Virus record (IMG/VR): IMGVR_UViG_3300001567_000262
Span: 1-64,000 of that record
Reading direction: 5' to 3' (one strand)
Length of the DNA stretch: 64,000 nt
Source: a virus
This document shows positions 26,788 through 63,470 of the stretch, in pieces. The notes beneath the pieces were generated by a model. The model ran no database searches and had not been told where the DNA came from. It was given only the letters and a program-made list of their open reading frames with translations. Both the position numbers and the translations under genes were made by a program. The first letter of the stretch is position 1, and each line of letters starts with the position of its first letter.

Positions 26788-26814
26788 CCAAAAAGAAAGG
26801 AGGAACAACTCAGC

Positions 26815-27678: not shown

Positions 27679-27693
27679 GCGGAGGAGGAACGC

Positions 27694-29891: not shown

Positions 29892-29906
29892 GAGGTGAAC
29901 AACCCT

Positions 29907-30117: not shown

Positions 30118-30135
30118 TTCAGGAGGTGAATCTCC

Positions 30136-32147: not shown

Positions 32148-32155
32148 GGTGACGC

Positions 32156-32848: not shown

Positions 32849-33005
32849 AGGAATCGTTCTTCCTCTGTTACGGACGCGGGCCGTTCAAGTCGCTTGAGGA
32901 AGTCGAGCGGCTTCCGGCCCGGGTCCGGCAGTGGTTCGTGGAGCGGCTCTCCGACCAGTACCGTGAAGAGGAACGCCAGATGAAGAGCGCGGCGAGAAGG
33001 AAAAA

Positions 33006-36637: not shown

Positions 36638-36927
36638 TGATGAGCGTTTTTGAAGGTTCCAGATACGAGAAAGTGTTCGTTTACACGAGACGGTTCCGGG
36701 ACTTCGTTCGGAACACGCTCACGTTCCGTGAAATCGACCGAGAGATACCGGATGGAAGCATTCTGCACACCGTGACCGAGACCGACCGGATAGACAACAT
36801 CAGTTATCAGTATTACGGAACGCCGGATTATTGGTGGTACATCGTCGATAAGAATCCGGGCGTGGACCCGCTCGATCTTCCGGTCGGAAAACAGTTGTGG
36901 ATTCCGCCGCTTCCGCAGGAGCAATGA
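36637..36927 (+). CDS. LysM/tail-X-like baseplate protein
   Basis: HTVTETDRIDNISYQYYG..WWYI..N..L.VG..LWIP. Confidence 0.8.
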   Translation: MMSVFEGSRYEKVFVYTRRFRDFVRNTLTFREIDREIPDGSILHTVTETDRIDNISYQYYGTPDYWWYIVDKNPGVDPLDLPVGKQLWIPPLPQEQ

Positions 36928-36928
36928 A

Positions 36929-37762: not shown

Positions 37763-37763
37763 A

Positions 37764-38255
37764 ATGCTGCCAGTCGAACCACATGGCGTTTCAAATAAAG
37801 ACGCAATTCCGAAAGCTCCCAAGGGCGGCGCTATTTCCGGTGTGGGCACGGGCGGCGGCAAAAACAAAGTCGAGACCACTCATTATTTAAAGGACAACGA
37901 GATCGGCGGCGCGCTGCCGGACACACAGGAAGGACTCGACTCCGCATCAGGCGCGAAACATTACAAGAATGAAAAGGCAATGGAAGGCTCGCTCACACTC
38001 GTTCGGGGTTTCCCGCAGATTAATGCCGGGGACAAAATCACGATCCTCGGCGTCGGGCCGGTATTCTCCGGCGCTTGGATAGTGAAAACACATACGCTGA
38101 AAGTCTCGCAGGACGGATGCCAGAGCACGCTCGAACTCACACGCAACGCGGTCGGAAATTCCGGCGGCGGGTCTGAAACCGGTGGCGGGTTCGAGACGGA
38201 CAAGAAGAAGACGCAGAACACGCCGCTCAAAGGCGATAACTTTTCGGAGATGTGA
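37764..38255 (+). CDS. Baseplate hub (gpD-like), C-terminal part
   Basis: GFPQINAGDKITILGVGPVFSGAWIV motif typical of the gpD C-terminus. Confidence 0.65.
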   Translation: MLPVEPHGVSNKDAIPKAPKGGAISGVGTGGGKNKVETTHYLKDNEIGGALPDTQEGLDSASGAKHYKNEKAMEGSLTLVRGFPQINAGDKITILGVGPVFSGAWIVKTHTLKVSQDGCQSTLELTRNAVGNSGGGSETGGGFETDKKKTQNTPLKGDNFSEM

Positions 38256-38256
38256 C

Positions 38257-39189
38257 ATGCCGTCGTTTGTTGGGAAATATCGCGGGATCGTCGAGGACAA
38301 CAAGGACCCGGAACATCGGGGACGCTTGAAGTGCAAGTGCCCGCAGGTGTTCGGTGATGAAGTCCTGGACTGGGCGCTCCCGTGCGTGCCTTACGGCGGG
38401 GATTCCGGCACCGGGTTCTTTTCCATCCCTAAGAAGGGATCGTCCGTATGGCTCGAGTTCGAGCAAGGTGACGCAAACAGGCCGGTCTGGGTCGGCGTGT
38501 GGTGGGCAGCGCCGGAGGATAAGACCGAGACGGCGGACGTCACGCACAAAAAGGAAAAGCAATCGTCTGGTCCGTGGGACGAAGCCGAGACCGGTGATGC
38601 GAAGCGGGATGTTCCAGACAACCATGCATGGCAAACGAAATCCGGCCACAGGATCGAACTCGATGACACCGATGGCCAGACGAAGATAAAGATTACCGAC
38701 CGCAAGGGACAGCACATCATGATCCGGTCGGAGGACGGTAAAGAAAAAATATATATGAAGGACGCCGCGGATAATCGATTTCTGCTCGATGCCACATCCG
38801 GCAAGCGCCGCATCCTCATGCAGGACGGCGCTGGAAGCGCGGTTCTCTTGGATTCGGAAAAAGGCGACGTCTACATCGCATCCGCAAAAGACTTGTCCCT
38901 TCTCGCCGGTGAAAACCTTTACATCGGATGCAAAAGCAACCGCGAGGAAACGGTCGGCGGCAATCACAATGTCTCGGTCATGGGAAGCGGCGACTGGGAT
39001 GTCGCCGGCGCGCTAAAGCTGGCGAAGTCTTCCGGCGATGTAAATATCGCAAGCGGAAGCAAAGCGGCAGCACGAACCGACGACCAGCTCGCGGCCGCGA
39101 CGGAAACTGCTGGCGGTTCCGCGCCACATTCACACGGTCTGTCTTCCGGCAAAGTCGGCCAGGGTTCATCGAAAGTGAAAATCGGGTGA
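38257..39189 (+). CDS. Baseplate spike (gpV/gp5-like)
   Basis: KYRGIVEDNKDPEHRGR, FSIPKKGSSVWLEFEQGD, TKSGHRIELDD; C-terminal HSH. Confidence 0.9.
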   Translation: MPSFVGKYRGIVEDNKDPEHRGRLKCKCPQVFGDEVLDWALPCVPYGGDSGTGFFSIPKKGSSVWLEFEQGDANRPVWVGVWWAAPEDKTETADVTHKKEKQSSGPWDEAETGDAKRDVPDNHAWQTKSGHRIELDDTDGQTKIKITDRKGQHIMIRSEDGKEKIYMKDAADNRFLLDATSGKRRILMQDGAGSAVLLDSEKGDVYIASAKDLSLLAGENLYIGCKSNREETVGGNHNVSVMGSGDWDVAGALKLAKSSGDVNIASGSKAAARTDDQLAAATETAGGSAPHSHGLSSGKVGQGSSKVKIG

Positions 39190-39193
39190 TCGC

Positions 39194-39715
39194 ATGAGTT
39201 CTTGCACTGACAACTTGAAAGATTTCCTCGGCGACGAGTTGAAATCCAAACTCGGCGATGTCCTCAAAGACGCGACCGACAGTTCGCCTCTGGGACTCGC
39301 CCAAAAAGCCCTCGGGCAGGCGCAGAAACTTCAGGACACAAAATCCGTCGTGTCTCAGGGAATACAGTCTTTCAAGCAACGGGTAGGATTACCCGCTGGC
39401 CGTATGGACGGACTCGGCGGTCTCAATCTCGGCGAAATAAAACAGAAAGCCGATGCTCTTAAAGCCAAGGCGCAGGAAGTGCAAAATAAAATCGCGGACT
39501 TTCAATCGCAGTTTCCCGGATGCGCACTCGATCTCGACATCATGCAGACGATCAACACGGTCGCATCCATCGACACAAATCTTGATCCCATGAGCATGAT
39601 CGACACGTCAAAACTCGACGGGGAAATAGCCGATGCGCAGTCGAAGATCGAGGAAGCCACGGACATGCAGGCCCAGTCGGCGCGGCTTCAGGATATGTTC
39701 GGAGTGTCATTATGA
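39194..39715 (+). CDS. Hypothetical helical protein in the baseplate module
   Basis: Tightly coupled between spike and gp25 genes. Confidence 0.55.
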   Translation: MSSCTDNLKDFLGDELKSKLGDVLKDATDSSPLGLAQKALGQAQKLQDTKSVVSQGIQSFKQRVGLPAGRMDGLGGLNLGEIKQKADALKAKAQEVQNKIADFQSQFPGCALDLDIMQTINTVASIDTNLDPMSMIDTSKLDGEIADAQSKIEEATDMQAQSARLQDMFGVSL

Positions 39716-40101
39716 ATCTGGGATATCGAGGCATTTCATTTCCGTTTCGTTTCAACGGCCTTGGGTCGGTAGCTTCAAGCACTGTTGAGACGGGCAACCC
39801 GGCGCACATCCTTGAGAGTATCCGCCAGATCATCGGCACGCGCCGGGGCGACCGCGTCATGCGACCGGAGTTCGGAGCCGACGCGGACAATCTGGTTTTT
39901 TCGCCGCAGTCCAATTCAGGTATCCGTATCGCAACGCACAATATCGGCCAGCAGATACTCCGGTGGGAAAAGCGCGTCGATCTTCAGAAGGTTGAAATCA
40001 CCCGTATCGAAGACCTCGAAGCCGAGATAAATCTCGATGTCAAAATCAAAGTCACACGCGAGACAGAAGAAATGAAAATACCGATGAAGAAGGAAGACTG
40101 A
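39712..40101 (+). CDS. gp25/GPW baseplate wedge protein
   Basis: GISFPFRF, ESIRQIIGTRRGDRVMRPEFG, WEKRV. Confidence 0.9.
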   Translation: MNLGYRGISFPFRFNGLGSVASSTVETGNPAHILESIRQIIGTRRGDRVMRPEFGADADNLVFSPQSNSGIRIATHNIGQQILRWEKRVDLQKVEITRIEDLEAEINLDVKIKVTRETEEMKIPMKKED

Positions 40102-40103
40102 TC

Positions 40104-41591
40104 ATGCCGGAACTCGATGTCAGCCGTCTCGTAAATTTCTCGAAGCAGATAGACTACACCAGCCTGGACTGGCTTTCATTCCTATCCGACATGGTGGATA
40201 AGATTCCACAGCTCACGCCGGAATGGACGGATTACACCCCGTCTGATCAGGGCATGGTGGTTCTCGAACTGGTGTCTTTCATCCTCGACGCTCTTTCCTA
40301 CCGGTGTGACGTGATCGCAAACGAGGCGTACATTCAGACCGCCGTTCTGCGGAAGTCCGTTCTGAACCTTGCCAAGATGATCGATTACACCCCGGCGCCC
40401 GCTGTTTCGGCTGTCACTGATTTAATGTTTACGATAACGCCACAGACGATTGATTTTGTGATCCCCGCGGGAATGCAGGTTTCCACCCAGCCGACCGGCG
40501 TTGAGGAAAGTTATGCGTTCGAGACGTTTGACGACCTCACGATTCCTCCCGGACAGACAACCGGAACTGTCGCCGCGATTGAGGGAGAAACAAAACGTGA
40601 AATCCTCGGCAGCAGCACGGGGCTCCCGGCGCAGTTCTTTGAACTGAGTTTTAAGCCGCTCTCCTACGCGCCGGACGGCACATGCTCGCTTGAGGTCTAT
40701 GTCACGGAGAACGGTATCGAAGAACGATGGCCTCTGGTGCAGTCGCTTCTCGACAGCAAGCCGTCTGAAAAACACTATGAAATCGAGACGGACGAGAACG
40801 ATGTTGTTACGGTGAACTTCGGCGACAACCAGAACGGAAAAATCCCCGCTCCGGGTACGAACAACGTCCGTGCCGTTTATCGTGTCGGCGGCGGCGCGCA
40901 TGGGAATGTCGGCGCGAACAAGATAAACCGGATGGTGTCGAACATCTCCGAAGTGTCGTCCGTAACGAATCCGCTTCCTGCGGTTGGCGGTGTGGACAGA
41001 GAGACAGTTGAAGGAATCAAGCGAATGGCACCGAGAATGCTCCGCACGCTCTGGCGCGCGGTGACCGCCGAGGATTACAAAACGCTGGCGGAAGTCCTGC
41101 CTGGAGTTGCGAAAGCCACGGTTCTGTGCGCACCGCCCGGACAGGCGGCATATTGGGGACAGGTGAATCTTTACATCGCGCCTGAAGGCGGCGGACTTCC
41201 GACGGCGGAACTCAAACACATGGTCGAGGAATACTTCGCCGATAGGGAGATGCTGACGGCGACGACGGTTGTGTTCGATCCGGTCTATGTGCCGGTGAAC
41301 GTCTCTCTTGAAGTCGCGGTGAAAGAGAACTACATGCGGCTCGATATTGAGAACCTCGTGCGGGAAGCCGTGCGGAACTTCTTTAATTTCCCCAACGTGG
41401 ACTTCGGGCAATGTGTGTTTATGAGTGATCTCGTTTCATCCGTGGACGCCATCGAGGGTGTGCGGTATGTGAATCTTACGCTTCTTACCCGCGATGCCGC
41501 CGGAGTTAGCAATGTCATAATTGCGGCGAATGAAGTGCCGCAACTCGGAGTGCTGGCAATTGATTCTTTTGGAGGCATTGAAGAGTTGTAA
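40104..41591 (+). CDS. Baseplate J-like protein
   Basis: IPEWTD-like PQLTPEWTD, DQGMVVLEL, FGD..NGKIP, YRVGGG, RAVTAEDY. Confidence 0.9.
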   Translation: MPELDVSRLVNFSKQIDYTSLDWLSFLSDMVDKIPQLTPEWTDYTPSDQGMVVLELVSFILDALSYRCDVIANEAYIQTAVLRKSVLNLAKMIDYTPAPAVSAVTDLMFTITPQTIDFVIPAGMQVSTQPTGVEESYAFETFDDLTIPPGQTTGTVAAIEGETKREILGSSTGLPAQFFELSFKPLSYAPDGTCSLEVYVTENGIEERWPLVQSLLDSKPSEKHYEIETDENDVVTVNFGDNQNGKIPAPGTNNVRAVYRVGGGAHGNVGANKINRMVSNISEVSSVTNPLPAVGGVDRETVEGIKRMAPRMLRTLWRAVTAEDYKTLAEVLPGVAKATVLCAPPGQAAYWGQVNLYIAPEGGGLPTAELKHMVEEYFADREMLTATTVVFDPVYVPVNVSLEVAVKENYMRLDIENLVREAVRNFFNFPNVDFGQCVFMSDLVSSVDAIEGVRYVNLTLLTRDAAGVSNVIIAANEVPQLGVLAIDSFGGIEEL

Positions 41592-41603
41592 GCAGATAAT
41601 AAA

Positions 41604-41716
41604 AGTCCGGCAGTATTGACGCTTCGAGCCCGGTAACCAGCCCGGTAGCATCGAATCCAAGCCCGGTGATTGAACGGAACATACACGGTTCCGTTGAATT
41701 GCCGGGCTTTTTATTT
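41604..41716 (+). promoter_or_regulatory. Repeat-rich attenuator/terminator element, copy 2
   Basis: AGTCCGGCAGTATTGA, AGCCCGGT three times, stem AAGCCCGGTGATT/AATTGCCGGGCTT with inner AACGGAAC/GTTCCGTT stem, then a T-run. Confidence 0.7.
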
Positions 41717-41742
41717 GCCCACAAACATCGGAGGTGAAAGCA

Positions 41743-41898
41743 ATGGACGACATCGGATGGGGACTTGCCCCGTGGGGGCTCGATCCCTGGGGTTCCAACG
41801 AAGATGAATCCGGCGGCGGGACGGACGAGGTCGGCTTCGAGCCGATGGACGGCGTGGTTCTAAGCCCCGGCGTATTCGTGTTCGAACAAACAAACTGA
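41743..41898 (+). CDS. 51-aa protein with GWGxxPWGxxPWG motif (absent from the ORF track)
   Basis: GGAGGTG RBS; MDDIGWGLAPWGLDPWGSNEDESGGG... Confidence 0.5.
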   Translation: MDDIGWGLAPWGLDPWGSNEDESGGGTDEVGFEPMDGVVLSPGVFVFEQTN

Positions 41899-41922
41899 GC
41901 AAAAAAAAGGAGGCATACATTC

Positions 41923-44643
41923 ATGGCATTCACATTCACAGATCTTCTGCATCTGGCAATGCCCGCAAGGGGCGACAAGAACTGGGACGCGGACGTGAAC
42001 CGCGCTCTGCGCACCATCGACAAGGCGCTCGAAGACCTCGGCGCGAGGCCGCGATTTTACGACAAGCGCACCGTGGCTTCCGGCACGGCAACTGTGAACG
42101 GCAGGCAGGTCACGCTTTCCGGCATCGAGGTTGTTGTCGGCCAGACAAACACCATTCTTGAAGGTGGAACGGTAACTGTTCCCGCAAACGCGACGATCAG
42201 GCCGCGCGTTGACACTCTTTCAGTCAATCCCGAACAGCCCGCCATTCTCATTCTCACGCAGGGCGATCCCGCGGGCGACGTTGAAGGCCCGCTCCGCGTC
42301 ACGAAGATGTACGACCGGAACACATCGGGGCTGGATGAACTGCTCAACCCGACCGGAAAGACTGGGACGCTTTTCGTCATCCCGACGATTCTTTCGCATT
42401 ACGACCCCGCCGTAGAAACTCTCATCGCACCTGCTTACGAACTGCCGCTTGAAATGTTCATGCAGGGACCGCCGGACAGCGTGATTCCGAAAATCCTGCA
42501 TTTCGACCCGGAGACCGGGTCGTTCGTAGACACCGGTGTCGATCTTCACTTCACGTCCACATTCCGTTCGAACGTCGGCGAACTCATCGCCGTGATTCCG
42601 CTCGGATGCGTTGCTCCGAATGCTGCGGGAACAGGTGACAGCTACTTCTTCGCGTGCATTGTTTCGAACGACAGTATTCCCGGCAACGTCATCATCGCGG
42701 AGTTCGACGCTGAGTCCGGGGCTGTCGTGGACGCTTTCTGGTTCTCGAACGAGGACAACAATGTATTTTTCTCCATCCCCGGCTTCTGGAAATTCACGGG
42801 AGTGGAATCCGGCGCTCGGACGTTCCTCGCGTCGATCCTGCCCCTCACGATGCAGCTCAAATTCGCAAAGCCGCTCATGGCGAGCGTCCGTATTCCCAAC
42901 CCGCCTTCTGCAGTAAAGATGTTCGGACAGCCGCTCACGTTCGGAACGACGACCATTCACGCGATGGAGGTTGTGACGGATTCGGTCCGTTCGCTCTGCC
43001 CCATGGGTGACCTCGTCGCGCTGCCGGGCAGCGGCATGGACGGCTCCGGCGTTCTCATTTGCGGCGCGAGCAGCTCGGAGGAAGGCGCGGTCGGCTCCAT
43101 CTTCAATCAGAACAACAACGACAACGTGACGCGTCCGTACAACTCGATTCAGGGCGAAATGAGCTGGAACGATGACGGCAACGGGTTTGACCCGCTACCG
43201 CTCATTCTTGAACTCGCGGGAAATGCGGCCGCATGGGATTTGAACACGGCACCTGTTTCTCCGGCATTCACATCCGCGGTCAATGTCATGAACGGCGATC
43301 AGATCGCGATGGCCAGCCGTATCAGCAACAATCGCACCGAATGGCGCAATCCGACCAACACGCAGATTGAGGTCGTTCTCAACGATGGACACACTACTCC
43401 GCCTGTCGGCAAAGAGATATTCCTCACAATCGAGGGAGAACAGAACAACGAGAAGTACGACACGATGTGGTCGGTCGCTGTGCAGGCACTCCCCGGCGAC
43501 GGAAAGATAGGCGTCGTCCTCAACAACGCACACATCTTCCGGGGCGGCTCGATCAGCGATTACTACCGCCTGAGCGGGTTTCAGTATAACGGCAACATGA
43601 AAATCCGCGCCGGTTACCGGATCATGAACGGCAACAACTACACCGAGCGCGTCCTGCATCTTGACGGTGTGGCCGATGCGGATATCGGCAAGCCTGTGAA
43701 GATTACTTACGACCACGACGGTCTCGAACTCTCCTGCATCTCATTCATCTGCGGCGACGGTGAAATCCGCGAGTGTTATGCGGGCTCGGACAATCTCCGT
43801 GATCACAATAACAACGAGTTCCCGGACTGGCTTGGAACCGTTTACCGCGAAACCTGCAAAGGCGACATCCACATTGGTTGGAACGTCCTCAATTCCAACA
43901 ACTCGAAGTCCATGCCGCTCGCTCAGGAATTCACGCCGGTAATCAAATCCCGTTCCGAGAACTATGTCGCGTTCCAGAAGAACAACATCACAGGCGCGCC
44001 AAGCTCTTCAAACACAGTGACTTATGACAAGAACGGTGTCACGGCGAGCTGGCATGATACGAACAGCGGAAACGACGTCTTTATCTGCGATGACACAACG
44101 CTCGTATCCAGCAGCGGGCTTCCGGTCCAGGGCGGCGGCGGGACGGATTATACACAGCTCGCCCCGGACGGATTCAAGTGTTCCGTTGGGACGGACATTC
44201 CGCTTCTCACATCCGACGTCATCGATCCAGATTACGTCACGGTCGAGTTGCTTCCCTATCAGGAACCAATCTTCACCGGGAAAAGATACAACTTCCCGTC
44301 CGCGATTGCGGTCGCGCTCGGTTCGGCATATCTCAAGGGCAAGTTCTATGCTCCCGGTATCGCGCTCTCCGGCATTCCCTATTCGGCCATCTTCGAGTTC
44401 TCGTCTTATGACGAGCCTGTGGCACAGGACGAGCCGACCGGCCACATCAAGGTCGGCGAGGTTCTCGTGCAGCCGGACGCGGACGGAGCGCCGCTCACAA
44501 TCCTTACGCAGCCGGACTATTCGAGTGCGACAGTTTCCCGCGCCGATCAGTTCCGCTCGATGCTTGCGGCGTTCAGCGTCATGAACGATCTACACAATCT
44601 CCTGCCCGCGTTTCTCACCATAGCGCCGTTTCTTAAAAAGTAA
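41923..44643 (+). CDS. Tail fibre / receptor-binding-like protein
   Basis: N-terminal LHLAMP.RG..NW...VN.ALR.ID fibre-attachment-like segment, then a beta-rich body. Confidence 0.55.
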   Translation: MAFTFTDLLHLAMPARGDKNWDADVNRALRTIDKALEDLGARPRFYDKRTVASGTATVNGRQVTLSGIEVVVGQTNTILEGGTVTVPANATIRPRVDTLSVNPEQPAILILTQGDPAGDVEGPLRVTKMYDRNTSGLDELLNPTGKTGTLFVIPTILSHYDPAVETLIAPAYELPLEMFMQGPPDSVIPKILHFDPETGSFVDTGVDLHFTSTFRSNVGELIAVIPLGCVAPNAAGTGDSYFFACIVSNDSIPGNVIIAEFDAESGAVVDAFWFSNEDNNVFFSIPGFWKFTGVESGARTFLASILPLTMQLKFAKPLMASVRIPNPPSAVKMFGQPLTFGTTTIHAMEVVTDSVRSLCPMGDLVALPGSGMDGSGVLICGASSSEEGAVGSIFNQNNNDNVTRPYNSIQGEMSWNDDGNGFDPLPLILELAGNAAAWDLNTAPVSPAFTSAVNVMNGDQIAMASRISNNRTEWRNPTNTQIEVVLNDGHTTPPVGKEIFLTIEGEQNNEKYDTMWSVAVQALPGDGKIGVVLNNAHIFRGGSISDYYRLSGFQYNGNMKIRAGYRIMNGNNYTERVLHLDGVADADIGKPVKITYDHDGLELSCISFICGDGEIRECYAGSDNLRDHNNNEFPDWLGTVYRETCKGDIHIGWNVLNSNNSKSMPLAQEFTPVIKSRSENYVAFQKNNITGAPSSSNTVTYDKNGVTASWHDTNSGNDVFICDDTTLVSSSGLPVQGGGGTDYTQLAPDGFKCSVGTDIPLLTSDVIDPDYVTVELLPYQEPIFTGKRYNFPSAIAVALGSAYLKGKFYAPGIALSGIPYSAIFEFSSYDEPVAQDEPTGHIKVGEVLVQPDADGAPLTILTQPDYSSATVSRADQFRSMLAAFSVMNDLHNLLPAFLTIAPFLKK

Positions 44644-44652
44644 GGAGCATCC

Positions 44653-45708
44653 ATGCTGACGTCGCATGATCGTGATAACTCGATAATCGTGTCCTGGACA
44701 AATCCTCCGGGCGCGGCTCGGACTATTCTCGTCAGGAAAACGAGGGATTATCCCCGGAACATCCATGACGGAAACGTCGTGTCCGACGCCGCCCCGGCGG
44801 TGGAGTCCTTTGTCGACCCGTCTCCCGCGCACGGTTTCTACAACTACTACCGCGCGTTCTTTCAAGACGCAGTCGGCGCATGGATTGATGTGCCCGTGGA
44901 AGTTGACCGCTCGCGCATCCGATGCGAGATGTCATTCGATTATCACGGCAAGCTGTACGGCAATCTCCCGGAACTCTACGAACGAAATGACGAGAACGAC
45001 GAGTTACGCCGGTTCCTCGGAATCATCGCATGGGAGCTGGAGAAGTTCAGGTCAACGCAATCCGGCCTTAACGACACATCCAATGTGAACGAAGCGCGGG
45101 ACGATCTGCTCGAGCATCTCGCGTGGAATGTCGGCTGGCTTCTGAACCGCGAACTGCCCGTGCTGCGCCAGCGCGCCGAAATCAAACGTGCCGTTGCCAT
45201 CTACCGAAAGAAAGGCACGCGCCGGGGACTCATCGATCTCATTCAGGGGATCATGAACTGGGACATGGAGGTCATCAAATACAACCGCAACATTCTCATG
45301 ACCGGCCATCCCGACAGCACAACGCTCAAGGTGAGTGATCCGAACGTCACGATGAACATGGATACGTCCGCAGACACGGCGGACTATATCCTCGGCGGCG
45401 ACAAATCCCCGGACAGAATCCGCATCAAGATCAAAGCAACTTACGACTTCCACATGTTCGAGAAGGTGCGAAACAAGCTGTTCCGCATCCTTCGTTTCTG
45501 GGTGCCCGCGTGTATGTCCGTGATTCTTGAACTCGCCACCTACAACGAGGAGTCGAGCTGCATCGGCGACTGGCGACCGGTTCAGGCGGACCTTCTGTCA
45601 AACAACTGGCTTCTCACGAACGCATTCACATCAAGCGAATGGCAAATCCTATCTGAAAGGACAACCAACAACCTCTTATGGAGAACTCCGTTACTCACAT
45701 CCCTATGA
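44653..45708 (+). CDS. Baseplate wedge protein (P2 gpI-like tail domain)
   Basis: LP.LY..ND...LRRFL, LLEHLAWNVGW, IYRKKGTRRGL. Confidence 0.8.
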   Translation: MLTSHDRDNSIIVSWTNPPGAARTILVRKTRDYPRNIHDGNVVSDAAPAVESFVDPSPAHGFYNYYRAFFQDAVGAWIDVPVEVDRSRIRCEMSFDYHGKLYGNLPELYERNDENDELRRFLGIIAWELEKFRSTQSGLNDTSNVNEARDDLLEHLAWNVGWLLNRELPVLRQRAEIKRAVAIYRKKGTRRGLIDLIQGIMNWDMEVIKYNRNILMTGHPDSTTLKVSDPNVTMNMDTSADTADYILGGDKSPDRIRIKIKATYDFHMFEKVRNKLFRILRFWVPACMSVILELATYNEESSCIGDWRPVQADLLSNNWLLTNAFTSSEWQILSERTTNNLLWRTPLLTSL

Positions 45709-46202
45709 AAACGGCATTCACGATTGAAGGCCGTTTCATGGACATCGCGCACTATCTCGATGGCCGCTCCGAAATTATCCGCGAGGGACACAACATAGTG
45801 ACCGACTCCGGTCTCGGCCTCGTTGTAGGTGCGCTCGGTAATCTGATGAACGGCATCGCACAATGGCAAGTCGGAAGCGGCGATCCCGCATGGGACACGG
45901 CCCCCGAGGAAGCGACGGCAGACAGGACTTGCCTCGTTGCCCCCGTTTTTATGAAGCCGGTCACGGTTTCGTACTGGGATGCCGTGAACAATCGTTTCTC
46001 GCCGACGCCGACCGACACGATTGATGTTCGCGTCGTCTTCATGGCCGAAGAGGCAAACGCGCTGCTCCGCGAGTTCGGGCTTGTCGGGCCCGACCCGGAT
46101 CATGTTCTTTTCAACTACGTCATCCACGAGCGCATATCAAAGTCCAACAACTTCAATCTCGAACGCATCATGCGGATCACGGTGCGGCGCGAACAGAACT
46201 GA
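45705..46202 (+). CDS. Baseplate/tail-collar structural protein
   Basis: HNIVTDSGL, VGSGDP, LREFGL motifs; ATGA coupling. Confidence 0.6.
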   Translation: MKTAFTIEGRFMDIAHYLDGRSEIIREGHNIVTDSGLGLVVGALGNLMNGIAQWQVGSGDPAWDTAPEEATADRTCLVAPVFMKPVTVSYWDAVNNRFSPTPTDTIDVRVVFMAEEANALLREFGLVGPDPDHVLFNYVIHERISKSNNFNLERIMRITVRREQN

Positions 46203-46220
46203 CGAAAGGAAGAACAACTC

Positions 46221-46748
46221 ATGGCAAATAGAAAAATCCGTAATCTCATCGTCCACCATTCCGTGAGCGCCTGGGGTGACGGCGCTGTCGTCACCCAGTG
46301 GCACACCAATCCCAAGCCGAAAGGAAACGGCTGGAGCGCTCCCGGCTATCACGTTGTCATCTGCAACGGCTATCCCAATTACAACGCTTGGAGCAAGAGA
46401 AAACCCGTCGCGCCCGCGGACGGTCGCGTCGACCGCATCTGGCCGGAAGACAAATTCTCAAACGGCTGCAAATACGCGAATGCTGATGCCCTCCATGTGT
46501 GTCTCATCGGCGATTTCGATAAGGACGCGCCGACTGAGCGTCAGATGGAAAAGCTCACGGACCTTCTCGCGTTCTGGTGCCGGAAGTACGGACTCGATCC
46601 TCGCACGTCTATTTTCGGACACGGCGAGATGCAACGGAAGATCGGCAAGGAAGGCTATAGCAAAACGTGTCCCGGTAAAAACGTAAGCATGAACGCCGTG
46701 CGGAAAGCTGTCGCAGAGAAGATGTCTCTCGCGGAGGTGAAGAAATGA
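46221..46748 (+). CDS. N-acetylmuramoyl-L-alanine amidase (Amidase_2, endolysin)
   Basis: IVHHS, GYHVVI, CLIGDF, GH and KTCPG zinc-amidase motifs. Confidence 0.9.
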   Translation: MANRKIRNLIVHHSVSAWGDGAVVTQWHTNPKPKGNGWSAPGYHVVICNGYPNYNAWSKRKPVAPADGRVDRIWPEDKFSNGCKYANADALHVCLIGDFDKDAPTERQMEKLTDLLAFWCRKYGLDPRTSIFGHGEMQRKIGKEGYSKTCPGKNVSMNAVRKAVAEKMSLAEVKK

Positions 46749-49700
46749 CCGTATCCCGTAATCAGTTTGATGAAACGAAAAACTGGACGGAGCCGGAATG
46801 GCAGGAAGGCGTCCCCGTCATGGACGCTGATCTGAACCTCGCAATGAAGATCGGCAAGACCGGACTGCGGCGGGCGGTGTGTGATTTCCTCGGAAACGGC
46901 TCGCCGAACGATGGGTTCAAGTTATCCGGCCTCGCAACCGACCCCTTAATCCATGCCGGGGACATCTGGATCGCCGGTCTGAAACTCGAACTGTCTGAAG
47001 ACGTCCATGCCTCCGAGCAGCCGAATGCGCCGGTGGCGTTCCCAAATGGAAACGGTATCTGGTTCATTGACACCGTCGAGCAACTCCTGACGAATGCGGA
47101 AGACCCGGCGATAAGAGACTACCGGCTCCCCGCAAACGTGGAAACACCGGTAAAGGTGTGGAAGACCGACTGGACGCTCCGAAAAGTCCTCGGCGCATCG
47201 CTTCCGATGCCCGAACCCGATCATTACTACCTTGGCATCGCAATCGAGGCTGGCGGCGTTCTCACGGACATACGAAATACCGGAATGATTCTCGCTGGGG
47301 CGGACACTGGGTATCAGAACCGCGTCGGTGGTCGTCCCGGAAGCGGACACCGGCACCAGGATGAGGATATCGACGTCCAGAATCCCAACTACACCGGTGA
47401 CACGCTCGAGGAAGTCCTGAATGAAATTGATTCACGTATCGACGTTGTTCAGGGCGGCATCGGTGTCGTCACGCCCCATGCGGCCACACATGGCGCTGGC
47501 GGTTCGGATCAGGTCAATATCGCAAACCTGTCCGGGCAATGCACACAGGCGCAGTTGTCTCCGGCGCATTCCGGTCTACACACAGTCTCTTTCAATGGCG
47601 GACTGCCGGTTTCTCCCGATGTGAACGGGAACGCATCTATCGGCGCGCATCTCGCGGACACGGCCATTCACAGAAAGAATCACAACGATCTTCTTTCCAT
47701 GCAGGGCGGCACGCCGACAGAGCGTTATCACCTCGCCTTGGACCTCTACAACGCCGCGTCAGGAGCCGCCGGCGCGAATGCCGCCAACCCGTTTGCAACA
47801 GTCGGCGATATCTCAGGTGTCGCGTCCAAGTTCGCGTCGCCGGTTCAGACCGCGCAGAATCTCCGCGACGTCGCGGCAGCGAACCGTTCCGACAAACAGG
47901 TGCGGCTTGTAGAGGACAAAGGCTCGCTTTATCGCTTCGATGATACGGGCACCGGCACCGACGACGGCGACGGCATAATCGCTCCGACATCCGGCACGGG
48001 ACGCTGGTTCAAGATGTCGTCCGCCGTTCCCGATCTTTCGACGGTTCTTACCAAAGGAAACAGCGCGGGCAACCGCAAAATCGTCAACCTTCTCAACCCG
48101 GACAATCCGCAGGACGCCGCGACCATGGGCTGGGTCAAAAACCTCGTGGGCGCTGGCGGCACAAACGCCTCGTGGGTTGTCATGGACACTTCCGGTGCGC
48201 CGGGCACGTATTCAGATCTGCAGCAGGCAATCAACGCGCTCGGAAATGACGGTGGGGTCGTCTGGATAAAGCCCGGCACCTACACTCTCAGTTCTCACGT
48301 CACGATGAAACACAATACCATCCTTCACGGCCTCGGCTCGATGGAGGAAGGATTGCCGGACGTCATGCCGACGCTGGTTCCGGCAGCGGGATTCACAGAC
48401 TATTGCATGATTCAGGCGTCCCCCGGAAACAAGTTCCTGAATCTCTGGATCAAGGTGCAAAAAAACAGCATCGGCATCAGCCCGTACAGATATTACGGTT
48501 CCCGTCTCGACGTGGATGGTTGTTTTATCGAAGCCGCGACCACGGACTTCGGGAGCGATTTCTATGCGTCCACAATCGGGATCGGCGGCGATTGGGGTGT
48601 TTACGGGCAAGAAATCATGAATGGAAAAATCCGTAACTGCGTATTTCGGCGGCTGCGGCACGGCATCTACTGCGAGCTGAACAATAACACGGTCATCGAA
48701 TACAACCGTTTTCAGGGCAGCGGCGGATTCCGGTATGAACTCGATGATGTCATATACTCGGCTGTCAATCAGGGGAGCAACCAGTTCCGCGCAACCTCCG
48801 CAGTCGTAAATGCCGGGCTGATTGCAGTTGGCATGACGGTCGGATTCAGCGACGGCACAAACAGCGACAGCAAAATGATTCAGGACATGGTGTACGACAG
48901 CACGTATGGATTCTATATCTGCACCGTGAACGGAGGATTCCAACACGGCTATGACGGATCGCCCGGCCAGAGTTTCTACAGCCAGCCCCCCTCATCCGGG
49001 ATCACGGCAGGTGACAACACCTACGAGACGTTCATCTGTTTCAACTACTTTGACGGCGGCGGAAATGGATATCTCGATATCAATGCCGCGAGAGACCCCG
49101 GCACGAACATAGGTCTTCTCAACGCATACATCATCGGCAACACGTCCGCCACGCTTTTTACGGGCGTTGATAAACCGACCGTGAAGTTGCAGACCAGCCC
49201 GTACTCCTTCTCCGGCGGTGACATCCTGTTTCTTGGCAACACTTTCGCCGGACAGATTTTCGTTGACGGATCGAACACTGTCGCCTTCATCTGTTGCAAC
49301 AACAATATCGGCTCGATTGACGCGACGGCTTATGAAGGCCGGGTCATCTTCAATAACAACCTGTGTCACGGCAACGTGAAGCTGAAAAACGCGGCCACGG
49401 CCAATGGCAACTACGTCGCGGGAAATCTTCAGGTCATCAGCGGCACCACGGAAAAGACGCTGGCGGTCGGTAATTTTGTAGGTTACGGAATGACTCTTGC
49501 CGGTGACTACAGTGTCGCGGCGAACAATGTCATCGAGGACGGTGGGCTCAGTGTCGGAGGCAAAGGCTCACGCGCGTCAGGGAATTCGGTGCGAGGGACG
49601 CTCACGCTCGGCTTCTGGGGATCTGCTACAGGCAATGTCATCCGCACACAAAAGTCGGTCGCCATCAGCGCCATCGTGCCCCGTGCGCAGATCGCTGGAA

Positions 49701-58249: not shown

Positions 58250-58329
58250 CTTCTCCGATGCTTTTTTACAATCCGTCTCGATTGAGCGAAACCTTGATCA
58301 GCAATACCAACAAACTTGATAATATATAT

Positions 58330-58346
58330 AGCAATAAACGTGCCAA
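58330..58346 (-). promoter_or_regulatory. Sigma-54 (-24/-12) promoter of the RiPP operon
   Basis: TTGGCACGTTTATTGCT on the minus strand matches consensus YTGGCACGNNNNTTGCW, about 80 nt upstream of the rSAM ATG. Confidence 0.85.
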
Positions 58347-58600
58347 CGCTAACCAAGATTTTGATTTGTCTGCTTATGTTTGTTTAGGTAACGGGGCACA
58401 GATTCCAAAAACGCCTTTTGTTACTGGGCAATATCAATAAAATATAGAATGGGTTTGTCTATAATAAATGCATTCCTGTAGAAACAATAACTTATAAAAA
58501 CTTGACATTGGCTATATCAGGATATAGAAAGACTATATAGGAGTCTATGTTCCGTGGACGATTGGAAGATGCTGGCCACAAAATGGGGGAGGTAGCCGTT

Positions 58601-60313
58601 ATGCGAAGAGCTGTCTTTTGTCTAATTGGGGAATTTAGCGATCAGGTGCCAAGGAATTCTGATTTATGGGAAAGATTTCGCCCCACAGTCGCCATAGGTA
58701 CGCAAAAGAACATTGAATTCACATATATGCTGATTGTTTACCAATCACAAAGGCCCGATCATGTATCACTGTTAAAGACACTATGCGATGATATTGCCCA
58801 AATTAGAGACGAGTCTGGATCGCCATCCCTTAAAATAATAGAAGTGCCCGTGGAGTTTCCCGACATTCATGATTTTGCCACTACATATACAGTCGTTCTT
58901 AAAGGATTGAAGGAATTTCTTCCCGAAGATTGTGAAGAAGTATATTTACACATGAATACAGGATTTCATACTATGCAATTTGCAATGTACACGATTGCAG
59001 AGCAGAGACTGTTGCCACAACCAATATTTCTTGTACAGACCATTCCTGGAGAGGGTGAGAGGATAAGCAATAAGGAATCAAACACAATATGTAGTGTTGC
59101 CAGAATACTCGATCTATCGTGGGTAAAATACCCAGAGATAAAAACCGATGTTGAAAAAAGAAAGTATCCCTTCCAAACAAAGTGGGATGCTACTATACCA
59201 GAAAATCAGAAACTCCGAATTTTGTACGAAAATATGATGTTGATTGGGGGGAAAACTGTCGATCCTTTGATTCTTCTTGGTCCCACGGGGTCGGGTAAAA
59301 CGTTTATTGCTAGGATTATTCATGAGCAGTGGTGTTTTATTATAAGACAGGCTAATTACGATGAAAGCAACAACGCCCCACCTTTTATGGAATTCAACTG
59401 TGCGGGATTATCAAGGGAATTAGCATATTCTCAACTATTTGGGCACAAAAAGGGCGCATTTACAGGGGCTCATGCAGATCAGTCTGGTCTTTTTGAACAA
59501 GCTGACCGCGGAACTCTGTTTCTCGATGAGATAACAGAACTTGATCTACAAACTCAAGCCATGCTATTGAAGGTTATCGATGACGGAAAATATTTTCGAT
59601 TGGGAGATTCTCGCAAAATACCACTAAAGGCAAACGTGAGAATCATTTGTGCAACAAACAAAAACCTCGAACAAATGGTACACGCGGGTGCATTCAGGGA
59701 GGATCTCTATGCCCGTTTACGAGCATGGGTGTTCAGACTTCCAAGCATAAGAGAAAGGTTGGAAGATATTGAACGCTTGATAAATGAATTCTTAGGAACC
59801 TGGAGAAAAGAAAAAGCATATGAGTTCAGATCGAAGATCGATTTTGAACCGCTCGCAAAAAAACGATACATTGATTTTTCTTGTAGCGAACAGGCACTAT
59901 GGATAGGGAATCTTAGAGATTTGCGACTATCAATTTATCGGATGGCAACTCTGGCCAGTCTTCGTAGCGATGGAAGTTATAGTATGATCAATATGGATAT
60001 TGTTGAAGAGGAGATCGAAAGGTTGAAAGACATTTGGCAAAGAAATTTTGATGATGATATTGACGATACGAATTTGTATCGCACATTGACAAAAAGAGTT
60101 AAGAACCAATACCCAGATAAATCAATCGTTATAGGGACGGAGCTGTTTTTGCGAGATATTTGCTTGGGAGAACTGAGAAAAATGGGATGGCGCGGTACTT
60201 TAGCCGAGGCTTATCGACGCATCTATTCTACCGAATCATGTAATATAAAAAATCCTACAGACCAATGGAAAAAGCGTGGCAATGCAATATCGGAGCCCGG
60301 CAACGCGGTATAG
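58601..60313 (+). CDS. rtcR: RtcR-like sigma-54 activator (CARF-like sensor + AAA+)
   Basis: WERFRPTV and HMNTGFHTMQ resemble the RtcR N-terminal domain; GPTGSGKT, intact GAFTGA, LFLDEI, FREDLYARL. Start follows GGAGG. Confidence 0.8.
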   Translation: MRRAVFCLIGEFSDQVPRNSDLWERFRPTVAIGTQKNIEFTYMLIVYQSQRPDHVSLLKTLCDDIAQIRDESGSPSLKIIEVPVEFPDIHDFATTYTVVLKGLKEFLPEDCEEVYLHMNTGFHTMQFAMYTIAEQRLLPQPIFLVQTIPGEGERISNKESNTICSVARILDLSWVKYPEIKTDVEKRKYPFQTKWDATIPENQKLRILYENMMLIGGKTVDPLILLGPTGSGKTFIARIIHEQWCFIIRQANYDESNNAPPFMEFNCAGLSRELAYSQLFGHKKGAFTGAHADQSGLFEQADRGTLFLDEITELDLQTQAMLLKVIDDGKYFRLGDSRKIPLKANVRIICATNKNLEQMVHAGAFREDLYARLRAWVFRLPSIRERLEDIERLINEFLGTWRKEKAYEFRSKIDFEPLAKKRYIDFSCSEQALWIGNLRDLRLSIYRMATLASLRSDGSYSMINMDIVEEEIERLKDIWQRNFDDDIDDTNLYRTLTKRVKNQYPDKSIVIGTELFLRDICLGELRKMGWRGTLAEAYRRIYSTESCNIKNPTDQWKKRGNAISEPGNAV

Positions 60314-60456
60314 CATAAAAATATTTTCATTCAAAGCGGTTTCCAGCTCCAGTATTTTGTTGTTTTCGACCGTTTCAGGCTCCAGAACGCAAGAACGCCA
60401 CAATGTTCATTGCGATCATATATGGTATAATTCACACAGTGGATCTGTGATAGGAG

Positions 60457-61563
60457 ATGGCGGCGCTGAAAAACAAAAATTATTCTCATAATCGAACTCG
60501 ACTTCTTCTTATTAGAATCTCCTTACTGCTATTTTTGTTTGCGCCCGCCTTTGCGCTGATAACGTTCAAGGGGGACGCAAATACTCCACAGCTCGTAATG
60601 AGCGTTATTGATGTGGGGCAAGGCGATTCCATTCTCGTTGAATTTCCCAACGGGCAGGATATGTTGGTCGACGCTGGTCCACGAAGCGCCGGGCCGACTG
60701 TAGTGGATTATCTTCAAAAAAGAAACATCTCAAGAATCAACATTCTGGTGGCGACGCACCCGCACGAGGATCACATCGGCGGGATGATGAATGTTCTGGA
60801 CACGTTCCCGGTGGATAAGGCTTGGGACTCTGGGTACTCTCATGGATCGAAAACACAGGAGAACTTTCTTCAGGCGATAAAAGATAAAGGCATCAGATTT
60901 GGAATGCCCAAGGCCGGGTTCTCCCAGCAGGTCGGAGATGCGAAAATAGAAGTGCTGGCCCCGGTACGCGCTCTTTCCGGCACGAACAGCGACGCGAACA
61001 ATAACAGTGTCGTGATTCGCATATCCTATCAGCAAACCAGTTTTCTATTGACCGGCGACATGGAAAGCGAGGAGCGTTCGACCATCTCGTCATGGCCGAA
61101 AACAACAGTCTTAAAGGTTGCGCATCACGGGTCCAGAAACGGCACGGACAGATATTTTCTTTCCTCGTTATCGTCTAAGATGGCTGTCATATCGTGCGCC
61201 CAGGGAAACAGCTATGGACACCCCCACTCATCAACGATATCCGCGCTCATGAACGCCGGTATCAAAATCTATGACACAGAAGATGTCGGCACCGTTGTTC
61301 TTTCATCGGACGGGAAAACCGTTAACGTGAAAACACTCGGAGCGTCCTCTCACTCGTCATCATACGGGCCGTCGGGAAACAACAAGAGCAAGGAACAGCC
61401 GTCTCCAGGCGGCGCGGGAAACTACATCGGAAACAAGAACAGCAAAATATTTCATCGCCAGAGTTGCAGTTCGCTTCCAGCGGAAAAGAACCGTGTGTAT
61501 TTCAACACACGGGATGAGGCGATTTCACAGGGGTATCGGCCATGCAAAAGATGCAATCCATAA
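60457..61563 (+). CDS. ComEC/Rec2-type MBL-fold hydrolase with a C-terminal Ada-like zinc domain; N-terminal membrane anchor/signal
   Basis: DVGQGD, THPHEDHIGG, LLTGD, KVAHHGS, YGHPH; FH..SC..GYRPC.RC.P. Confidence 0.9.
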   Translation: MAALKNKNYSHNRTRLLLIRISLLLFLFAPAFALITFKGDANTPQLVMSVIDVGQGDSILVEFPNGQDMLVDAGPRSAGPTVVDYLQKRNISRINILVATHPHEDHIGGMMNVLDTFPVDKAWDSGYSHGSKTQENFLQAIKDKGIRFGMPKAGFSQQVGDAKIEVLAPVRALSGTNSDANNNSVVIRISYQQTSFLLTGDMESEERSTISSWPKTTVLKVAHHGSRNGTDRYFLSSLSSKMAVISCAQGNSYGHPHSSTISALMNAGIKIYDTEDVGTVVLSSDGKTVNVKTLGASSHSSSYGPSGNNKSKEQPSPGGAGNYIGNKNSKIFHRQSCSSLPAEKNRVYFNTRDEAISQGYRPCKRCNP

Positions 61564-61775
61564 AAGGATTCGTAGACAGAATTGAAGAAACCACGGCGGT
61601 CGTCCTCCTCGGCGACGACGAGTCTGTGAAAGTTAATATCCCCGTTTCCTGGCTCCCAAAGGGTATCAAGGAAGGCACGGTCATCAATTTTGGTGTGTCG
61701 GTGGATGAAGACGCCATCAACGCCGGAAAAGGCCGAGTGCAATCTCTGCTCGATTCCATGTCCAACGAGCCCTGA
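61542..61775 (+). CDS. DUF3006 family protein
   Basis: VDRIEE..AV..LP.GIKEG.V pattern; usual partner of ComEC-like MBL genes. Confidence 0.8.
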   Translation: MQKMQSIKGFVDRIEETTAVVLLGDDESVKVNIPVSWLPKGIKEGTVINFGVSVDEDAINAGKGRVQSLLDSMSNEP

Positions 61776-61975
61776 ATCCTGCGGTCTTTACCCGCTTTCC
61801 CACCCATATTTTATCCTAACATTGAACAGACGGATTTCGGCGTATACGGCGTACTTTAACGCCCGTATTTGTACTGTTTTTAGTCCTCCAGATATGCTAA
61901 TATGGGCTATAATAGCGTTTAAGATTGCAATGCTTTAATATTCTCATTATTTTAACATTATTCTTAATATATTGG

Positions 61976-62008
61976 CTTGACTTAACCCGCCCCCTGCTCC
62001 AATATGTG
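61976..62008 (+). promoter_or_regulatory. Conserved 33-bp promoter/operator upstream of the amidoligase module
   Basis: CTTGACTTAACCCGCCCCCTGCTCCAATATGTG contains a TTGACT -35; 27/33 identical to 13597-13629 (-). Confidence 0.6.
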
Positions 62009-62067
62009 TGTAGATTTAAAAAGCCCTGCAATCAAAGGCTTTTTCACGGAAACGGAGGCGGAAGACG

Positions 62068-62967
62068 ATGGATTTGAAAGACATCAGATTCGGGATCGAG
62101 ATCGAGACGGTAAGACAGACGCGGGAAAAGGTTGCGCGGGCCATCCAATCGGTGGTCGGCGGCACGGTGCTGCACACCGGAATGCCGCAATGCCACGACC
62201 CATGGGAGGTCACCGACGACCGCGGCCGCAAATGGAAAGTGGTGGCCGACGGGTCGCTCACCAACGTGGATGCAAAGTATCGGGCTGAAATCGTAAGCCC
62301 GATACTTGTTTACGGGGACATCGACCAGCTCCAGGAAGTGGTTCGGGCGGTCCGCGCGGCCGGAGCGCACACGAGCAGCCAGTGTGGCATCCACGTCCAC
62401 CTCGACGCGGATTCCTTCACCGCGAAATCCCTCGTCAACCTCGCAAAAATCGTCAACAAACAGGAAGACCTCATCGTAAAGGCCCTCGACGTAAACGAGC
62501 GGCGGTTGACCTCTTACGCGAAAAAGGTGAGCGGCGAGTTCATCGAGAAGATTGAAAAACGCAAACCGAAATCAAAAGACGAACTCAACAAGCTCTGGTA
62601 CGGCTACCAGAATCAAAGCCCGACGCACTACGATTCGACCCGCTACCGGGGATTAAACCTTCACAACGTGTGGTATCGCGGGACGGTCGAGTTCCGCTAT
62701 TTCAACGGAACGCTCCACGCCGGAAAAATCAAATCATACATTCAGTTCTGTCTCGCGCTCGGCGCAAAAGCCATCAACAGCAACGCGGCGAGCAGCCGCA
62801 AACGCGACCTGAATCCAATAAACAGCAAATACGATTTCCGGGTGTTCCTGCTCGGGCTCGGACTCATCGGCGACGAGTTCAAGACGGCACGGCAGCACCT
62901 GCTCGCAAACCTCGAGGGCGACAGCGCATTCAAGAACGGACGTCCACAAACAGAACAGGTGGCATGA
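62068..62967 (+). CDS. Amidoligase family protein (Amidoligase_2, COOH-NH2 ligase)
   Basis: [33 protein letters not shown]. Confidence 0.9.
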
Positions 62968-62980
62968 CGGAGGGCACGAA

Positions 62981-63205
62981 ATGAAAATCAGAGTGAAGTT
63001 CGGAAAGAACCCGTACAGCAACAGATTTGTCTGTGGACACTGCCAGGAGCCGTTCGAGCGCGGCGGATTCTTTATTCGGCTCGAGCATGGCGGACAGGTC
63101 GTCGACATACCGGTCTGTCCGCGATGCTGGGAATCGGGCGATCTCCTCGAAGGAATGATCGACCTGAGCGTCCATAATGCGTCACATCCGATTGGGTTGG
63201 CGTAA
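62981..63205 (+). CDS. Small CxxC..CxxC hypothetical protein
   Basis: RBS-preceded ORF with CGHC and CPRC. Confidence 0.55.
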   Translation: MKIRVKFGKNPYSNRFVCGHCQEPFERGGFFIRLEHGGQVVDIPVCPRCWESGDLLEGMIDLSVHNASHPIGLA

Positions 63206-63227
63206 ATTGCGAAAGGAGGCGGTTGCA

Positions 63228-63470
63228 ATGCGTATCGAACTGCGGGGCGGCGAGAAATTCAGCGGGTCGCCGATGAAAATCGTTACCCAGATGAAAGGCT
63301 CGACGATGTTTTCGGACGTGAAGACCATCCGTGAATACGTGGACATGGTGCTTCGCAACGCGAAGATGGTGGAGAACGTCGAACTGACGGTGAAGGGAAA
63401 CACGGACGAGGAACTCGCGCGGTCGCTCGTTTCCGAGTTGATCGAGCGCGGTCTTGCGAAGGAGGTATAG
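63228..63470 (+). CDS. Hypothetical protein
   Basis: ATG follows AGGAGG. Confidence 0.6.
   Translation: MRIELRGGEKFSGSPMKIVTQMKGSTMFSDVKTIREYVDMVLRNAKMVENVELTVKGNTDEELARSLVSELIERGLAKEV

Follow-up and report, generated by a model that had tools for sequence, protein, structure and literature searches.

RtcR, the sigma-54-dependent activator of the rtcBA and rsr-yrlBA-rtcBA operons of Escherichia coli and Salmonella, is built from an N-terminal CARF domain, an AAA+ domain and a C-terminal helix-turn-helix (HTH) region. The CARF domain of Salmonella RtcR binds 5′ tRNA halves that end in a 2′,3′-cyclic phosphate (PMC7790460), and the signal for Salmonella RtcR is made by genes of the Gifsy-1 prophage in the SOS response (PMC9879122). 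For E. coli RtcR, activation was shown to require the binding of RtcA/RtcB to the CARF domain, while oligoadenylates do not activate the protein (PMC9650030). RtcR-like regulators of the same CARF-AAA+-HTH type without linkage to rtc genes have been described beside restriction-modification (R-M) systems (Makarova 2014, PMC4012209) and in CoCoNuT superoperons (Bell 2024, PMC11090510), and PADLOC holds models that cover such non-rtc regulators (RtcR, RtcR_PspF1 and RtcR_PspF2). Here, we describe an RtcR-family activator that faces an operon for a ribosomally made and post-translationally modified peptide (RiPP) in positions 1 to 64,000 of the IMG/VR record IMGVR_UViG_3300001567_000262. This stretch, hereafter the window, comprises the first 64 kb of a 133,335-bp provirus record with a CheckV completeness of 64%. 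Activator and operon probably form a self-contained and horizontally acquired module, carried as cargo by a myovirus-type prophage, in which a CARF-gated sigma-54 switch controls the RiPP operon. A first-pass annotation, made by a model from the sequence alone, had already proposed that this locus is a prophage-borne circuit leading from the sensing of damaged RNA to the synthesis of a modified peptide.

The activator is encoded on the plus strand by an open reading frame (ORF) of 588 amino acids (58547-60313). Its true start is probably the ATG at 58601 (M19), since homologues begin there, a ribosome-binding site (GGGGGAGG) lies upstream, the protein is called with 570 amino acids in another assembly, and residues 1-16 are disordered in the structural model, with a predicted local distance difference test score (pLDDT) below 50. 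The protein consists of a CARF domain (residues ~21-190), an AAA+ domain (239-473) and C-terminal helices (527-582), and thereby resembles canonical RtcR in its three-part architecture. The Pfam family RtcR (PF06956) matches residues 21-205 with an E-value of 4.8e-20 and 72 bits (cut-off 23.1 bits), and Sigma54_activat (PF00158) matches the protein with an E-value of 6.4e-51. Walker A (GPTGSGKT), Walker B (LFLDEI) and the GAFTGA motif (residues 303-308, nucleotides 59453-59470) are all intact, so that the divergent activator with an intact GAFTGA and an RtcR-like N-terminus is indeed present as first described. The best PADLOC model is RtcR--CARF_AAA_HTH (PDLC01993) with 330 bits, followed by RtcR_PspF2 (252) and RtcR_PspF1 (174). 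In an AlphaFold model of residues 19-215, computed from an alignment of 48 homologues, the domain adopts a Rossmann-like fold (mean pLDDT 89.8) with the motifs of the CARF superfamily after strand 1 and strand 4, and the family motifs G28/D32, T138-G139-F-H141 and Q164-T165 are kept. The Foldseek matches listed from the PDB include Can2, Cam1, Csm6, Csx1-Crn2, Card1, Csa3 and a ring nuclease (E-values down to 2.6e-6, probability 1.00), and those listed are CARF-domain or related CRISPR-associated Rossmann-fold proteins, save one untitled Sulfolobus entry. A sequence search of the PDB with the activator matched AAA+ domains only, and no solved structure of an RtcR CARF domain was found there. 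Judged by the profile match and the predicted fold, the N-terminus is an RtcR-type CARF domain, as the first-pass annotation had supposed.

The window activator can be aligned with canonical RtcR over the full length, shares the G..D and TG.H motifs of its CARF domain, and has the same divergent arrangement of gene and promoter. However, the two are only 30-35% identical, and the conserved C-terminal RLRKYLxRFxLxW tail of canonical RtcR is missing from the window activator. In a quick maximum-likelihood tree, the window activator and ten homologues form a clade with a support of 99 in the Shimodaira-Hasegawa-like approximate likelihood ratio test (SH-aLRT), which is sister to 39 canonical RtcRs (96). 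The NCBIfam equivalog model of RtcR (NF038308) scores 363.4 bits against a cut-off of 650, in an alignment that ends at model position 462 of 530, and about half of the 54 positions that are conserved in at least 90% of canonical RtcR are kept. By these sequence measures, the window activator is not an RtcR equivalog. The two differ also in the operon that they face, which consists of RiPP genes here and of rtcBA in the canonical case. Neither RtcB (PF01139) nor RtcA (PF01137) has a match anywhere in the 133,335-bp record, such that the absence of rtcA and rtcB noted earlier for the window extends to the whole element.

The operon is headed by a sigma-54 promoter. The exact consensus TGGCACGTTTATTGC is located at 58331-58345 of the minus strand, and TTGGCACGTTTATTGCT, the reverse complement of 58331-58347, contains the core TGGCAC-N5-TTGC, with GG-N10-GC on the strand that is read into the operon. 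The site lies ~70-80 nt before the first gene, which starts at 58249 or 58240. No other exact consensus exists in the 64-kb window, where 0.06 sites are expected by chance and at least one was found in 6 of 100 shuffles, nor elsewhere in the 133-kb record, which bears out the earlier claim of a consensus sigma-54 promoter at this position. The control region between promoter and activator contains two copies of the repeat ATATAGAA (58442-58449 and 58522-58529) at a spacing of 80 bp, the dyad CTATATC-AGG-ATATAG (58512-58527) and the palindrome CTATATAG (58533-58540), which we infer to be candidate enhancer sites for the activator. No motif common to the control regions of the window and of homologous loci was established, apart from a loose likeness of ATATAG/ATAGA. 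The promoter at 58331 is likely the one on which the window activator acts.

The RiPP operon comprises seven tightly spaced genes on the minus strand, from 58249 down to 52107, and contains what is expected of a RiPP cluster, namely a maturase, a RiPP recognition element (RRE) and a short precursor in which leader and core are conserved. The best NCBIfam model for the maturase is the GeoRSP radical SAM protein, with 165 bits below the cut-off of 400 bits. No family in NCBIfam and Pfam was matched by the precursor. Its core, GKWCFGCTNC(N/K)CN, is invariant except for the one N/K position in four cassette lineages, the enzymes of which are only 36-46% identical. The stem-loop just past the precursor gene may act in stabilisation or attenuation of the transcript. 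With Pfam and NCBIfam, no exporter, protease or immunity gene could be recognised in the cluster. PADLOC gave no specific match among the operon genes, since the rSAM-pVip match spans the generic radical-SAM core only. The last gene, for a B12-radical SAM enzyme, is split in the window, but was rejected as a pseudogene, because two other assemblies have a single ORF of 436 amino acids and the window differs from it by single-base insertions only. Five such insertions, with no substitutions, distinguish the window (50525, 52685, 52775, 61872 and 61884) from contigs L009 and L024, and break this gene as well as a gene of 160 amino acids that follows the tail fibre. They look like errors of the assembly or the record rather than biology.

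Activator and operon reside together in an island within a prophage. Positions 1 to 50.3 kb of the window encode a myovirus-type set of proteins, including a RecD2-like helicase, a primase, the large terminase (which has only distant phage relatives), a portal, a Mu F-like protein, a Dam methylase, the tail sheath, the tape measure and long fibre-like genes. The record consists of two related prophages, A and B, which are 87% identical, with A 11495-28463 corresponding to B 99639-116631, A 36584-51603 to B 116627-131657, and A 61878-63469 to B 131744-133334. At the site where A has the 10.3-kb island, B has ~86 bp with a terminator. To its left the island abuts the stop codon of the last gene common to both prophages, and its right edge lies before a shared amidoligase module. 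Phage-homologous sequence thus borders the island on both sides, in the form of the genes that follow the tail fibre at one end and of the amidoligase module at the other. No target-site duplication was seen at the island ends. The GC content of the RiPP genes and the activator is 37-42%, compared to ~56% for the flanking phage genes and 50% for the MBL-Ada-Zn gene. Given this matching low GC content, ~15 points under that of the phage, operon and activator probably arrived together from an AT-richer donor. Since the AT-rich island is phage-flanked and missing from the sister prophage, the description of the circuit as prophage-borne stands.

Table 1. Positions of the features of the RiPP locus in the window (aa, amino acids).
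Feature	Position	Strand	Basis and remarks
RtcR-family sigma-54 activator	ORF 58547..60313, probable start 58601	plus	Pfam, NCBIfam and PADLOC profiles, AlphaFold model, Foldseek
Divergent control region with candidate activator binding sites	58346..58600	none	Repeats and dyads; enhancer role inferred
Sigma-54 promoter, -24 TGGCAC / -12 TTGC	58331..58347	minus	Exact consensus; predicted transcription start ~58320
Radical SAM/SPASM maturase, first operon gene	57179..58249	minus	Pfam Radical_SAM and SPASM
Stand-alone PqqD-type RRE	56867..57175	minus	PF05402, E-value 1.5e-10
40-aa precursor, YxxPxF leader and Cys-rich core GKWCFGCTNCNCN	56722..56844	minus	Strong ribosome-binding site
Strong stem-loop just past the precursor gene	56649..56703	minus	Fold-energy z = -3.4 versus shuffles
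Amidohydrolase-GNAT fusion	55372-56586	minus	Pfam/NCBIfam
AsnRS-like class II synthetase paralogue	54249-55385	minus	Pfam/NCBIfam
Prenyltransferase/cyclase-fold protein	53422-54267	minus	Pfam/NCBIfam
B12-radical SAM enzyme, split in the window	52107-53419	minus	Pfam/NCBIfam; single 436-aa ORF in other assemblies
10.3-kb cargo island in prophage A	51604..61877	none	RiPP operon, activator, MBL-Ada-Zn gene, DUF3006; missing from prophage B

Further features of the island and the two prophages were observed. The MBL-Ada-Zn gene (60457-61563) encodes a ComEC-like metallo-beta-lactamase (MBL) fold, together with a hydrophobic segment at the N-terminus and an Ada-type zinc domain at the C-terminus, and is found next to a DUF3006 gene (61542-61775) at the right end of the island; this end (60457-61775) gave weak PADLOC matches to LmuA and PDC-M48B. 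The amidoligase (PF12224) module is placed just past the cargo site in both prophages (window 62068-62967, record 131932-132831) and is followed in copy A by GATase and GGACT genes. Prophage B lacks the 8.1 kb that in A (28464-36583) encode the sheath, the tube region and the tape measure, and is therefore probably defective. In each copy, a tyrosine recombinase is encoded just upstream of the large terminase (window 12269-12769, record 100414-100917, both on the minus strand), which is an unusual position.

Relatives of the activator are rare and control other genes. Members of the clade were found at four loci among 185,579 species genomes, all of them metagenome-assembled genomes (MAGs) of Riflebacteria or uncultured bacteria, and a scan of the IMG/VR viral contigs with the CARF alignment of the clade found no relative besides the window record. 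In none of the neighbourhoods examined was rtcBA located next to a clade activator. Instead, three types of cargo were seen, namely small unknown proteins with EcsC and DUF5683 proteins, an EcsC protein with LeoA/LeoBC-like dynamin GTPases, and a PilB-type ATPase. The nearest homologues (40-42% identical) have a sigma-54 promoter ~150 bp from the activator start codon and directed away from it, with 0-2 mismatches and GG/GC kept; the sole exception in the sampled clade is the P0011 group (L006), in which no such promoter was found. This divergent layout, common to most of the clade, supports the assignment of the promoter at 58331 to the window activator. In the closest relatives (L003:11662-13881, L002:11739-14375 and L010:8639-10828), a protein of 729-878 amino acids is encoded directly downstream of the activator and translationally coupled to it. 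Searches of NCBIfam and Pfam with this protein gave nothing but one weak, sub-threshold NCBIfam match, and a protein atlas indicated a weak resemblance to DUF3800/TPR. It may be a partner in sensing; its gene is missing from the window island. In a Candidatus Riflebacteria MAG (L027:7848-11593) a PilB-type type IV pilus ATPase is encoded divergently to the RtcR-like activator, the promoter being an exact TGGCACGACGGTTGC, and RtcB is present elsewhere in the same genome. In L010 (1607-6738) three dynamin-like GTPases, matched by the LeoA/LeoBC models of PADLOC, are encoded together with an EcsC protein behind the sigma-54 promoter, which makes this a candidate for an inducible defence operon.

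The co-occurrence of activator and cassette had been suggested as a check of the circuit, and the pairing of the two was found not to be conserved. The amidohydrolase-GNAT fusion, used as marker of the cassette, has 14 relatives among 5.8 billion proteins. The window element was recovered from at least two assemblies and one short contig with 99.96% identity, and the gene order of the cassette recurs in the metagenome contigs L013-L017 and L026. Among sequencing runs, the full stretch was contained in four DNA runs of a single hydrocarbon metagenome, which is probably its source, and in no RNA run listed. In the lineage of L013-L015 no activator is located next to the cassette, and the one GG-N10-GC element seen there is degenerate, and no GG-N10-GC element was found for the cassette of L026. 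A distant cassette (L016:1927-8315 and L017:354-8059) has upstream a CARF-less sigma-54 activator of 392 amino acids, to which the nearest PADLOC model is RtcR_PspF2, and carries TGGCACTAGAACTGC 31 bp ahead of the radical SAM gene. This indicates that sigma-54 control of the RiPP family recurs with different activators, while an RtcR-type activator accompanies the cassette in the window element only.

Based on this arrangement, a mechanism can be proposed by which the module would work. Without ligand, the CARF domain would keep the AAA+ domain inactive, as in RtcR, and presumably it is such negative control that the domain exerts on the activator. Binding of a nucleic-acid-type small ligand or of a partner protein to the CARF domain would then allow the activator to oligomerise at sites within the 250-bp divergent region. 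The oligomer would remodel the host sigma-54 RNA polymerase sitting at TGGCAC-N5-TTGC (58331-58345), so that transcription could proceed through the genes for the radical SAM/SPASM maturase, the RRE, the 40-amino-acid precursor and the four tailoring enzymes. The ligand may be RNA ends with a 2′,3′-cyclic phosphate, by analogy with Salmonella RtcR, although this is the less probable option, and another nucleotide-type ligand or a protein partner is more probable. Several observations weigh against the module as a whole. The pairing of an RtcR-type activator with the RiPP cassette is found in one element only, and the relatives of the activator carry other cargo. In place of R40 and T140, which at least 97% of the sampled canonical RtcRs retain, the window activator uniquely has leucine and phenylalanine. 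The C-terminus has no HTH match in Pfam; in a full-length AlphaFold2 model it forms helices at residues 527-545, 552-560 and 570-582 with moderate confidence (pLDDT 54-86), and it aligns with the HTH region of RtcR (AEA.R.LY...NP.D), with the terminal motif missing. The candidate enhancer repeats are short and AT-rich, and RpoN is absent from the 133-kb record, which contains the provirus only. In addition, a sigma-70-like element (TTGGCA-16-TATTAT, 58319-58346 on the minus strand, 10 of 12 matches) overlaps the sigma-54 promoter, such that basal sigma-70 transcription of the operon is possible.

The nature of the signal is where the explanations diverge most. It is possible, though doubtful, that the CARF domain senses damaged RNA, such as 5′ tRNA halves or other 2′,3′-cyclic-phosphate ends produced by anticodon nucleases, superinfection or prophage induction, and that the damage triggers synthesis of the peptide. 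The profile assignment to the RtcR family, the higher PADLOC score of the RtcR model compared to the RtcR_PspF models and the core CARF motifs common to window activator and canonical RtcR point in this direction, as do the ligand of the Salmonella CARF domain (PMC7790460) and the generation of its signal by Gifsy-1 (PMC9879122); the same inference, itself a hypothesis, was published for CoCoNuT-linked RtcR homologues (PMC11090510). By contrast, the identity of 30-35%, the separate clade (SH-aLRT 99), a score of 363 bits where the equivalog requires 650, and the changes R40L and T140F argue against it, and E. coli RtcR depends on RtcA/RtcB at its CARF domain (PMC9650030), neither of which the element encodes. 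A comparably tentative case can be made for the same wiring with a different signal, in which the CARF domain binds another nucleotide-type ligand such as a cyclic oligonucleotide, or is controlled by a partner protein, or in which the activator is largely constitutive and controlled via its own expression. Indeed, domains of the CARF class bind cyclic oligoadenylates, the structural neighbours listed are all cyclic oligoadenylate-binding, and both the clade as a whole and the window activator in particular have changes at positions conserved in canonical RtcR; furthermore, the partner gene coupled to the nearest relatives is not in the window island, and elsewhere the same cassette comes with a CARF-less activator. 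However, neither a cyclase nor any other gene for making a signal was recognised in the island with Pfam, NCBIfam and PADLOC, oligoadenylates fail to activate E. coli RtcR (PMC9650030), and the RtcR-type motifs are mostly kept. Of the proposed sensor-to-metabolite circuit, the CARF domain, the promoter heading a real RiPP operon and the location as prophage cargo have stood, whereas the RNA-damage signal is an analogy drawn from homology to canonical RtcR at 30-35% identity. Unlikely, in its full form, is the more far-reaching idea that a CARF switch sensing RNA damage or infection fires a cluster without exporter and immunity gene only in a cell that is already in trouble, through prophage induction, superinfection or ribotoxin attack, the peptide being released by lysis like colicins or acting intracellularly in an abortive or anti-phage role.

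Two further explanations would leave less of the module intact. The adjacency of activator and operon could be misleading, with the activator targeting a host rtcBA operon or other sigma-54 promoters and the operon depending on a different activator or on the sigma-70-like promoter that overlaps the sigma-54 site. As the record holds the provirus only and the host genome lies outside it, a distant rtcBA target is conceivable, all the more so with RtcB encoded elsewhere in Riflebacteria genomes that have a related activator. This is improbable, as the lone exact sigma-54 site in 133 kb occupies a divergent position that is shared by the sampled clade except for one group, activator and operon are alike in composition and were inserted together, and sigma-70-like matches are frequent in the AT-rich stretch around the promoter (38 found, 27.7 expected). 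Even less probable is that the island is host DNA beside the prophage, included by an over-extended provirus call. The length of the record together with its limited CheckV completeness would fit such an error, as would long non-phage-like stretches between 64 and 100 kb, but the flanks on both sides of the island are phage-homologous and are joined to each other in the sister prophage. A CARF-gated sigma-54 switch for a prophage-borne RiPP operon is the explanation that we consider probable.

If the wiring is real, natural-product biosynthesis joins RNA repair and restriction-type defence among the known outputs of RtcR-type CARF sensors, with such a sensor located on a phage. It would also offer a handle on a silent RiPP family with a strikingly conserved core, since, by analogy with RtcR, the cluster should become active in any rpoN+ host upon deletion of the CARF domain. 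With its varied cargo, the small activator clade represents a compact set for asking what divergent CARF domains bind. Should the peptide indeed be fired by RNA damage, the locus would provide a virus-owned link, at the level of transcription, between the sensing of nucleic-acid damage and the synthesis of a natural product, and one may speculate that a phage-borne RtcR-like sensor could report prophage induction in the manner known from Gifsy-1. RtcR-like regulators unlinked from rtc have already been published, and the idea is therefore less new than the first-pass annotation assumed. What is new is an RtcR-family CARF sensor that faces a RiPP operon, with both in one prophage cargo island, and so is the sensor's own small clade with its variable cargo. 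No description of a RiPP cluster controlled by a CARF/sigma-54 regulator was found, in a literature coverage that is incomplete and does not prove absence.

With its 330 bits for PDLC01993 and the lack of rtc genes, the window activator falls among the non-Rtc CARF-AAA+-HTH regulators, and it clusters with nine to ten homologues that are unlinked from rtc where their neighbourhoods were examined. Like the RtcR-like regulators beside R-M systems and in CoCoNuTs, it is detached from RNA repair and fronts accessory genes on mobile or variable DNA, and a near relative that fronts LeoA/LeoBC-like GTPases is akin to these regulators as well. It differs from them in its prophage location and in its cargo, which is for peptide biosynthesis and not for restriction or nucleases; a link to restriction or defence genes is not seen in the window operon. 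The divergent layout with a single promoter also contrasts with the co-directional superoperon of the CoCoNuT type. Among RiPP systems, the operon resembles GeoRSP (TIGR04303), ACGX and SCIFF/ranthipeptide-type systems, which likewise combine a SPASM maturase with a stand-alone RRE and a short Cys-rich precursor. However, all NCBIfam models of these systems score far under their cut-offs, and the set of tailoring enzymes is confined to a small group. Among temperate phages, SPbeta carries the sublancin cluster. Phage-encoded biosynthetic gene clusters have been described more generally (bioRxiv 10.1101/2020.10.01.322628) and share with the window the combination of a temperate phage and a bacteriocin-type peptide cargo. 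As far as found, the known phage clusters have not been described with a CARF/sigma-54 sensor, whereas the cluster in the window has one.

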